Shown here piece after piece: positions 3,118-3,193 of a stretch of DNA of 44,051 nt. Source of the stretch: Escherichia phage Rao1; the sequence record PQ221054. One strand, given 5' to 3'. The notes under the pieces were generated by a model. That model did not search any database, had not been told where the DNA came from, and saw only the letters and a list, made by a program, of their open reading frames with translations. Positions within the stretch are counted from its first letter, which is position 1; each line of letters opens with the position of its first letter. The translations under genes and the position numbers were made by a program.

Positions 3118-3193
3118 GTTCTGCTGGCGTAACAGGATAACGCAAAGACCTCCTAAGTCTTAGTTGCTGGTTCGAGTCCAGCGCGGAACACCA
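3118..3193 (+). tRNA. tRNA-Arg, anticodon CCU (reads AGG)
   Basis: Hand-folded cloverleaf: acceptor GTTCTGC/GCGGAAC (one GU pair), U8, D-stem GCGT/ACGC with GG in the D-loop, anticodon stem AAGAC/GTCTT, loop CTCCTAA (U33, CCT, A37), T-arm GCTGG-TTCGAGT-CCAGC, discriminator A, encoded CCA. Confidence 0.8.

Follow-up and report, generated by a model that had tools for sequence, protein, structure and literature searches.

A tRNA-Arg(CCU) gene for the AGG codon in Escherichia phage Rao1 and the leader-linked slot that holds it

The tRNA gene and its transcription unit

Escherichia phage Rao1 (sequence record PQ221054), whose 44,051-bp sequence was analysed at its full length and is called the window below, carries a tRNA-Arg gene with the anticodon CCU at the end of its left small-gene block, in a short promoter-to-terminator unit of its own immediately upstream of the small terminase gene terS. 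The subject of this report is this gene, the AGG codons it is expected to read, and its counterparts in related phages.

3118-3193, plus strand: tRNA-Arg(CCU) gene of 76 nucleotides (nt) with encoded CCA, defined by ARAGORN, Rfam family RF00005, a cloverleaf parse and covariation.

A preliminary description, drawn from the sequence alone, had placed a tRNA-Arg(CCU) here, and ARAGORN returned the identical coordinates, calling a single tRNA in the whole window (tRNA-Arg, anticodon CCT, plus strand). Infernal matched RF00005 to 3118-3190 with 59.3 bits (gathering score 29; E = 1.9e-10 with both strands searched; model positions 1-71 of 71), the one Rfam match above its gathering score in the entire window, so that both tRNA search tools score the gene. 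The minimum-free-energy (MFE) fold of 3118-3193 is a cloverleaf of -24.4 kcal/mol, and an element-by-element parse bears out the full cloverleaf with encoded CCA that had been drawn by hand, with 21 of 21 stem pairs formed in stems of 7, 4, 5 and 5 bp. The acceptor stem is GUUCUGC/GCGGAAC; the D arm is GCGU-AACAGGAUA-ACGC, with AACAGGAUA as the D loop; the anticodon arm, AAGAC-CUCCUAA-GUCUU, presents the 7-nt loop CUCCUAA with the anticodon at 3152-3154; the variable loop has 4 nt; and the T arm, GCUGG-UUCGAGU-CCAGC, presents the T-loop UUCGAGU and is followed, beyond the acceptor stem, by discriminator A73 and the CCA at 3191-3193. The universal tRNA nucleotides U8, A14, G18G19, U33, G53, U54U55C56, A58 and C61 are all in place. 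Seven CCU homologs keep all 21 pairs (100% stem pairing), with five variable pairs, three of which show compensatory double changes, and among 13 tRNAs of CCU and UCU type from the same genomic slot 10 of the 21 pairs vary, six with compensatory double changes. The feature at 3118-3193 is a genuine tRNA-Arg(CCU), with a signal far beyond chance.

E. coli arginyl-tRNA synthetase (ArgRS) recognises its substrates through A20, C35, U36 or G36, and A73 or G73. This identity set is complete in the phage tRNA (A20 in the D loop, ..GGAUA; C35 and U36 in the anticodon CCU; and A73), and for this reason E. coli ArgRS should be able to charge it. On these sequence features the tRNA is almost certainly functional.

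The gene lies among the following features of its transcription unit.

2893-2921, plus strand: predicted sigma-70 promoter, with -35 element TTGCAT at 2893-2898, a 17-nt spacer and -10 element TAGTAT at 2916-2921.
2929-3117, plus strand: structured 5' leader, which is also the pre-tRNA 5' leader (MFE -52.9 kcal/mol, z = -2.29 against shuffles).
3050-3064, plus strand: hairpin A, GTCGAG-AAA-CTCGAC, directly abutting hairpin B.
3065-3082, plus strand: hairpin B, GCTGG-AGGCGTAA-CCAGC, found family-wide, with ...GTAA invariant in the 3' part of the loop.
3091-3107, plus strand: the "orphan box" AATAGCGCAATCGCTAC, within an insertion of about 24 nt (about 3093-3116).
3197-3202, plus strand: Shine-Dalgarno sequence AAGGAG of a small open reading frame (ORF), read from the sequence, 4 nt past the tRNA CCA.
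3210-3392, plus strand: small ORF of 60 amino acids with one CxxC, from the ORF list (PHROG 2919, E = 1e-27).
3446-3469, plus strand: intrinsic terminator from a terminator scan, GCCCTC-TTCTT-GAGGGC (hairpin 3446-3462) followed by a T run.
3481-3489, plus strand: extended -10 promoter TGgTATAAT ahead of terS at 3515.

The predicted transcript start of the unit lies near G2929. A template made up of a -35 element, 17-18 nt, a -10 element, 7 nt and 'GTAG' recurs at the corresponding position of 30 among 38 related loci, compared with 2.5% of shuffled controls, and in the other eight, which form a TLS-like group, TTGACG-17-TAGATT-7-GTGAAC was seen by eye. The promoter copies of T1 and of Rogue1-type phages score 9-10 of 12 to consensus (in T1, -35 TTGACC and -10 TAGTAT). 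This conservation suggests that the sigma-70 promoter at 2893-2921 would drive the tRNA unit.

The family of the small ORF, PHROG 2919, is one of unknown function, and homologs of this ORF come after the leader in phages that have no tRNA. Its GenBank relatives are labelled 'DUF3667 domain-containing protein', a label that Pfam did not reproduce: no Pfam family reached threshold on the ORF, and the best model, a zinc ribbon, stayed below the cut-off (E = 0.012).

Because the tRNA lies within a promoter-to-terminator unit, its excision needs RNase P and host 3' processing. In E. coli, the thrU-tyrU-glyT-thrT-tufB operon has tRNAs that are co-transcribed upstream of an mRNA. There, likewise, tRNA lies in the 5' part of a coding transcript and is freed by processing; the phage unit differs from that operon in having a single tRNA, placed in a phage 5' untranslated region (UTR) downstream of a conserved structured leader.

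AGG demand and slot state

Codon usage was compared after calling genes alike in all sequences as greedy non-overlapping longest ORFs, which covered 93% of the window, with a 50-kb sample of E. coli K-12 as the host reference; robustness was checked with ORFs of at least 150 and at least 300 amino acids and with off-frame controls. AGG is the top arginine codon of the phage (163 of 678, or 24%), followed by CGC (150), AGA (139), CGT (112), CGA (95) and CGG (19). The preliminary description had called AGG rare in the host and had suggested codon-usage compensation, and the counts agree with both: AGG stands at 12.1 per 1000 codons in the phage and at 1.8 per 1000 in the host sample (AGA in the host, 2.5 per 1000), which makes it the first of the 61 sense codons in enrichment (6.4x), with AGA second (4.0x). 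In the longer phage ORFs AGG runs at 11.4 per 1000 (at least 150 amino acids) and 9.8 per 1000 (at least 300 amino acids). Since AGG makes up 24% of phage arginine codons and is among the rarest host codons, phage demand lies far above the supply from argW, the gene of the host tRNA-Arg(CCU), which is a minor isoacceptor in E. coli. Low host supply is also the reason why pRARE/Rosetta strains provide AGG and AGA tRNAs (PMC2610378).

Among the modules, packaging, head and tail genes lead with 14.3 AGG per 1000, ahead of the left small-gene block (10.0) and the right arm (9.3). PHROGs name an HNH endonuclease, a head closure protein, a tail terminator, an endolysin and a dNMP kinase among the AGG-rich ORFs, which are accordingly real genes; the ORF of the large terminase gene terL has 11 AGG codons and the ORF in the tape-measure position 23. 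There is no AGG in the major head protein, a DNA helicase and a transcription regulator.

Arginine codon usage is very uneven across genes, as the AGG/AGA/CGN counts of four ORFs illustrate.

4108-4614: annotated as HNH in phage TR3, almost only AGA/AGG for arginine (9/1/1).
10267-10875: HNH endonuclease by PHROGs, almost only AGA/AGG (4/12/0).
20820-21308: shares a repeat with 4108-4614 (families D10/D12), almost only AGA/AGG (5/5/0).
9263-10207: major head protein (0/0/11).

Homing endonucleases almost restricted to AGA/AGG are consistent with a foreign origin, and the capsid gene with translational selection.

For comparison, 49 related loci were taken from IMG/VR by large-terminase alignment and scanned with ARAGORN. 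Members of the Rtp/Rogue1-like clade have tRNA-Arg(CCU) or tRNA-Arg(UCU) in the slot upstream of terS, the latter tRNA exemplified by phage Rtp (loci L006 and L008; NC_007603, 4893-4969; ARAGORN, and 65.2 bits with Infernal/Rfam). About 33 loci (T1-like, TLS-like and more distant) have an empty slot, and ARAGORN found no tRNA in the whole T1 genome. One T1-like contig, L048, has six ARAGORN tRNAs in the slot at 8325-8972 (Arg-CCU, two Ser, Asn, Trp and Met), five of them confirmed by Rfam, and its Arg(CCU) is unrelated to that of the window and is therefore an independent CCU acquisition. AGG usage and its share of AGG plus AGA in these groups were as follows.

CCU carriers (n = 8): AGG 9.4-14.3 per 1000, mean 12.3; AGG/(AGG+AGA) 0.52-0.72.
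UCU carriers (n = 5): AGG 6.1-9.3 per 1000, mean 7.3; AGG/(AGG+AGA) 0.43-0.44.
Loci with no tRNA (n = 33): mean AGG 5.1 per 1000; mean AGG/(AGG+AGA) 0.42.
L048, independent CCU (n = 1): AGG 12.4 per 1000; AGG/(AGG+AGA) 0.63.

Genome-wide AGG usage follows the slot anticodon in this comparison, which is not phylogenetically corrected. A paired test, which controls for gene content, was made on reciprocal-best-hit orthologs by counting conserved arginine positions with AGG in only one of the two genomes (first genome to second).

Window (CCU) and Rtp (UCU): 40:23, p = 0.04.
Rogue1 (CCU) and Rtp (UCU): 64:34, p = 0.003.
Window and T1 (no tRNA): 41:15, p = 7e-4.
Rogue1 and T1: 52:5, p = 6e-11.
Window and Rogue1 (both CCU): 46:57, p = 0.32.

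All paired contrasts between slot states run in the direction that co-adaptation predicts.

Origin of the tRNA and the leader at its slot

The window is a T1-like coliphage of the Braunvirinae (Drexlerviridae), about 99.8% identical to the Escherichia phages TR3, CY1, TR2 and TR1 (99.5-99.9% over the region), and the GenBank records of TR2 and TR3 annotate the gene as tRNA-Arg, in TR2 with the note 'tRNA-Arg-CCT'. A blastn search with the 76 nt returned 42 phage records: 40 are T1-like coliphages and their relatives, matched over essentially full length at 81.6-100% identity and mostly annotated with a tRNA-Arg, and the remaining two are partial matches in a Bacillus phage. The Rogue1 homolog has been published as an arginyl-tRNA 'recognizing the rare codon AGG' (PMC3496638), and Niu et al. 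reported '1 arginyl-tRNA' in AHP24, AHS24, AHP42 and AKS96 (PMC4070988). The tRNA-Arg(CCU) is thus already known for Rogue1/JK06/AHP24-type phages and for genomes near-identical to the window, and since it is annotated in TR2 and TR3 and published for Rogue1, JK06 and the AHP24 group, the gene itself adds no novelty.

The tRNA-Arg(CCU) of Rogue1, JK06, AHP24, phiEB49, Sf12 and Sd1 (Drexlerviridae) and of TR1, TR2, TR3 and CY1 is the same gene as that of the window, which is 100% identical to the TR1/TR2/TR3/CY1 copy and 93-97% identical to about 34 further phage records. These homologs share with the window the anticodon and the position directly upstream of the small ORF and terS. They differ in three respects: the flanks of the window lineage are of Braunvirinae type and homologous to those of UCU carriers, unlike the flanks of the Rogunavirinae CCU carriers; the insertion of about 24 nt with the orphan box, between leader and tRNA, sets the window lineage apart from other CCU carriers; and at 27:43 the window has an A-U pair where most other CCU homologs compared have G-C. 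Two of the Drexlerviridae have further calls in the slot: Sd1 has a tRNA-Trp with its tRNA-Arg, and in phiEB49 a Val(AAC)-like ARAGORN call after the tRNA-Arg was not confirmed by Rfam and may be a pseudo-tRNA; the loci concerned are L015, 8633-8787, and L014, 3198-3351.

The host tRNA-Arg(CCU), E. coli argW, has the same anticodon as the phage tRNA, an identical 7-nt anticodon loop, and shares A20, A73, the 4-nt variable loop and the encoded CCA; with anticodon, loop, A20, A73 and CCA in common, the two should decode and be charged alike. They differ elsewhere, with 43 of 67 comparable positions identical and every stem different, and the acceptor and T arms of the window tRNA match those of the phage UCU tRNAs rather than argW. 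No match at E <= 1 was found by blastn with the phage tRNA against 5,426 complete E. coli genomes, and a degenerate 46-nt signature of its 5' half did not occur in the 185,579 species genomes of GTDB (bacteria and archaea). Recent capture of host argW is ruled out by these three results.

The Rtp-type tRNA-Arg(UCU) combines D and anticodon arms that are 34/35 identical to E. coli argU with the acceptor stem (apart from one compensated pair, U2-A71 to C2-G71) and T arm of the window tRNA, from which it differs in its anticodon UCU (reading AGA and AGG), a 5-nt variable loop and G73. It occupies the same slot, 28-29 nt past the start of hairpin B. Opt-79, whose CCU tRNA has diverged furthest among the homologs, stands between the two types. 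Genes of this UCU kind are very common in phages, with 1,131 phage records similar to the Rtp tRNA and at least 90% identity in about 98 of these; the RefSeq record of the Rtp reference genome has no annotation for this tRNA. The flanks of the window lineage are homologous on both sides to those of UCU-carrying Braunvirinae: upstream, the blastn match reaches about 3003, with weaker alignable homology over the rest of the leader, and downstream it restarts at 3194, the first base past the CCA. The tRNA between them is 96-97% identical to Rogunavirinae CCU tRNAs. Braunvirinae-type flanks around a Rogunavirinae-like tRNA therefore indicate at least one switch within Braunvirinae, which may have been replacement of a tRNA cassette or a shift of anticodon, in either direction.

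Once related leaders were anchored on the conserved hairpin B, all lineages showed the same layout: a promoter, 7 nt, a conserved start reading 'GTAGAC/GTAGGC', and a structured leader that is about 95-230 nt long and closes with two abutting hairpins, followed after about 10 nt by the Shine-Dalgarno sequence and start codon of the small ORF. Hairpin B is found 0.9-2.0 kb upstream of terL in 38 of the 49 loci (1.7 expected), in eight stem variants that are all fully paired, and it is also present in tRNA-less phages (T1 and TLS-like), where the equivalent GGAG lies about 10 nt 3' of it. A stem of at least 5 bp abuts hairpin B at 0-nt spacing in 13 of 24 unique related leaders (8% expected), with 10 distinct stems. 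In carriers, the inserted tRNAs lie between hairpin B and the Shine-Dalgarno sequence, the first starting 28-29 nt past the start of hairpin B; in the window, an extra 24 nt or so of inserted sequence lengthens this distance to 53 nt. This slot in the 5'-UTR is a hot spot for tRNA insertion. Leader equivalents were located at these positions.

L022 (T1): leader about 7624-7732, hairpin B 7713-7732.
L007: 3358.
L032: 8787.
L048: 8297.

The window leader (2929-3117) is homologous to those of UCU-carrying Braunvirinae. RNAalifold on whole leaders aligned with MAFFT returned only four pairs, since differences in loop length misregister the 5' stems (and MAFFT misregisters hairpin B too), and the hairpins were therefore tested by explicit pattern and stem parsing with shuffle controls. 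The leader matches no Rfam family, and a second or degenerate RNA gene in the 200-nt gap upstream of the tRNA was rejected, Rfam at E <= 10 having given chance-level matches only. A literature search on T1 antitermination or leader elements returned nothing relevant. The leader could be a processing, protein-binding or antitermination element, and as a conserved leader with tRNA insertions that is so far undescribed it merits an analysis of its own.

The preliminary description had also placed the tRNA in the early region, which as regards timing is an assumption, and directly after an orphan copy of a conserved box. The palindrome is real at 3091-3107, but it belongs to a lineage-specific insertion (alignment columns 211-234, absent from UCU-carrying relatives) and may be no true copy. 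The window contains 10 occurrences of the palindrome TAGC-N6-7-GCTA, with 1.3 expected; the box sequence is AATAGCAC-GAAT-TGCTAAA, and its copies are the following.

1464, 28745, 35491 and 39041, plus strand: canonical copies AATAGCACGAATTGCTAAA, each with a -10-like hexamer about 35 nt later.
26285, 27077, 43086 and 43896: copies in reverse orientation.
3093: variant copy.

The canonical box probably serves a phage regulator as operator or promoter element. At 3091-3107 the spacer has 6 nt in place of the canonical 7, and no -10 follows downstream. The 3' half of this copy, CGCUACUUAA (3102-3111), has its exact reverse complement in a conserved leader motif, UUAAGUAGCG (2992-3001), which is why the copy may not be a true promoter box; in the MFE fold of the leader, CGCUACUUAA and UUAAGUAGCG form a 10-bp long-range helix around three hairpins, which suggests that the insertion may have arisen by inverted duplication in the leader. 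The orphan box was rejected as a promoter of the tRNA, as no -10 stands at the canonical spacing and a transcript would start inside the tRNA.

Some further features of the window were recorded beside these. Strong intrinsic terminators, each a GC-rich hairpin followed by TTTTTTAT, punctuate the long plus-strand late operon, which implies re-initiation at internal promoters or some read-through. The terminator family comprises the following members.

6201-6226
9145-9170
18041-18066
21315-21340
29937-29962
40490-40515
3446-3469 (the terminator of the tRNA unit)

AT-only low-complexity tracts of (TA)n and (ATT)n runs, at 127-201 and 27214-27264, fall within or next to sequence that appears to be non-coding. 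Near the window end, at 43929-44022, two tandem 47-nt repeats rich in TATTGCA/TTGCAA are iteron-like and might be a replication or packaging signal.

Codon compensation, its alternatives and the use of the slot

It is likely, and we hold this with good confidence, that the gene is a functional phage tRNA-Arg(CCU) that adds AGG decoding capacity. Host RNA polymerase would start at the conserved sigma-70 promoter at 2893-2921 and produce a transcript of about 540 nt containing the structured leader, the tRNA and the 60-amino-acid ORF, ending at the intrinsic terminator at 3446-3469. RNase P and host 3' processing enzymes would release the tRNA, with its CCA already encoded, and E. coli ArgRS would charge it through A20, C35, U36 and A73. 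The charged tRNA would then supplement scarce argW; AGG demand is highest in the packaging, head and tail genes directly downstream. The gene is a sibling of the tRNA-Arg(UCU) in the same slot of sister phages, with AGG usage following the anticodon.

Several observations weigh against this account. The window promoter matches only 7 of 12 consensus positions, which is weak alone and below a general promoter-scan threshold. The host codon reference is a single sample. The major head protein, the most highly expressed gene, is without AGG or AGA, and its avoidance of both codons means that the phage tRNA leaves AGG not free of cost. AGA is also enriched 4x, yet the phage carries no AGA-reading tRNA. 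Relatives that have no tRNA still show 3-9 AGG per 1000 (2-5 times the level in the host sample), so that the tRNA is a help and not a necessity. Phylogenetic clustering of the comparative groups means that the contrasts are not independent, and that between the window and Rtp is marginal (p = 0.04); moreover, codon drift first and tRNA acquisition first are not separable.

The preliminary description had offered, as an alternative to codon compensation, resistance to host tRNA-targeting defences, by which the phage tRNA would replace or outlast a host tRNA-Arg that is cut or depleted by such immunity. We regard this as unlikely. T4 Pnk-class enzymes repair tRNA cut by anticodon nucleases, and signs of anticodon-nuclease conflict are found in a Pnk homolog in the window and in Pnk plus a Stp-like gene in Rtp, but the presence of Pnk does not sort with tRNA state (among partial loci; Pnk lies in the right arm in the window, and Rogue1 is without it). 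The polynucleotide kinase (Pnk) homolog of the window, at 37904-38452, shares 67% identity with Rtp rtp4 and 55% with T1 Pnk, and Rtp annotates its Stp-like gene as a PrrC activator (rtp6), with a homolog in Sf12 (L016, 1665-1754). T5 provides precedents, its tRNA-Tyr countering retron Eco7 and its tRNA-Lys countering PARIS, in both cases with a known nuclease and cleavage-escaping tRNAs. These are likewise phage-borne isoacceptors that sustain translation; unlike them, the window tRNA has no loop difference from the host tRNA, and no system aimed at tRNA-Arg(CCU) was found.

Other observations would fit such a role. Phage tRNAs rescue infection from tRNA-targeting systems elsewhere (PMC11555353, PMC12409363), and overexpressed PrrC efficiently cleaves host tRNA-Arg4 (mnm5UCU), which is also an AGG reader (PMC2610378) and has a wobble base that the C34 phage tRNA lacks. 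All four stems of the phage tRNA differ from those of argW (43/67 identical), a difference of possible importance where a nuclease recognises the tRNA body. However, the published criterion for a nuclease-evading phage tRNA is a mutation of the anticodon loop relative to the host isoacceptor (PMC10264068), and this diagnostic is absent: CUCCUAA and the A38/G39 junction are identical to argW, as the loop of the Rtp-type UCU tRNA is to that of argU. The suggestion of resistance thus loses its expected mark. Literature searches found no defence system specific to tRNA-Arg(CCU), colicin D being described as preferring tRNA-Arg(CGN) (PMC12409363), and a counter-defence role does not predict the strong match to codon usage.

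Slightly less probable again is a role in maintenance late in infection, in which the phage tRNA would offset decay of the host tRNA pool after shut-off of host transcription or degradation of host DNA, and not a steady-state shortage. Such a pool-decay model exists in the literature; it too predicts a tRNA matched to phage codon usage, as is seen, and the AGG load is greatest in late structural and lysis genes. Pool decay would favour many tRNAs, though, a state seen only in L048, and one tRNA for the rarest host isoacceptor fits a single-species shortage better.

Least probable by far is that the element is a processing or structural element, a decaying relic or an attachment-site fragment that decodes nothing: the tRNA lies inside the 5'-UTR, 4 nt from the Shine-Dalgarno sequence of the small ORF, so that RNase P cleavage necessarily parts leader from mRNA and the cut might mature or stabilise the small-ORF mRNA, and in K-12 prophages use the host genes argW and argU as attachment sites, but the full-length tRNA forms a perfect cloverleaf and lacks none of the ArgRS identity elements, every stem is preserved by compensatory evolution, every carrier has the anticodon CCU or UCU (both Arg AGR readers), and a processing signal leaves unexplained why codon usage tracks the anticodon. 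The attP or integration-site version was rejected outright on the full length of the tRNA and on the annotations of T1, Rtp and Rogue1, none of which includes an integrase.

Codon compensation, the preferred reading, has its classic model in the tRNA sets of T4-like and T5-like phages, which also supply tRNAs for codons that the phage uses more than its host. Those sets are clusters of 8-25 tRNAs, whereas here a 44-kb siphovirus carries a single tRNA for its most mismatched codon. The Rao1 gene may thus offer a clean quantitative textbook case, in which a small lytic phage with one tRNA carries the isoacceptor for which demand most exceeds host supply.

What goes beyond the cited papers and GenBank records is the alternation of CCU and UCU with its codon shifts, the unannotated Rtp tRNA and the family-wide structured leader. 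The Arg-tRNA slot could, more tentatively, be regarded as a natural anticodon-switch experiment, with homologous CCU and UCU versions, flanks that are 75-85% identical, an independent CCU gain and a shift between AGG and AGA, set in an insertion hot spot defined by a leader RNA that is perhaps cis-regulatory; as it stands, this wider reading is somewhat less likely to hold than to fail. The alternation of CCU and UCU in one slot would make these phages a tractable system for tests of tRNA-codon co-evolution, and it may also be useful for engineering host-independent expression in therapeutic T1-like phages.

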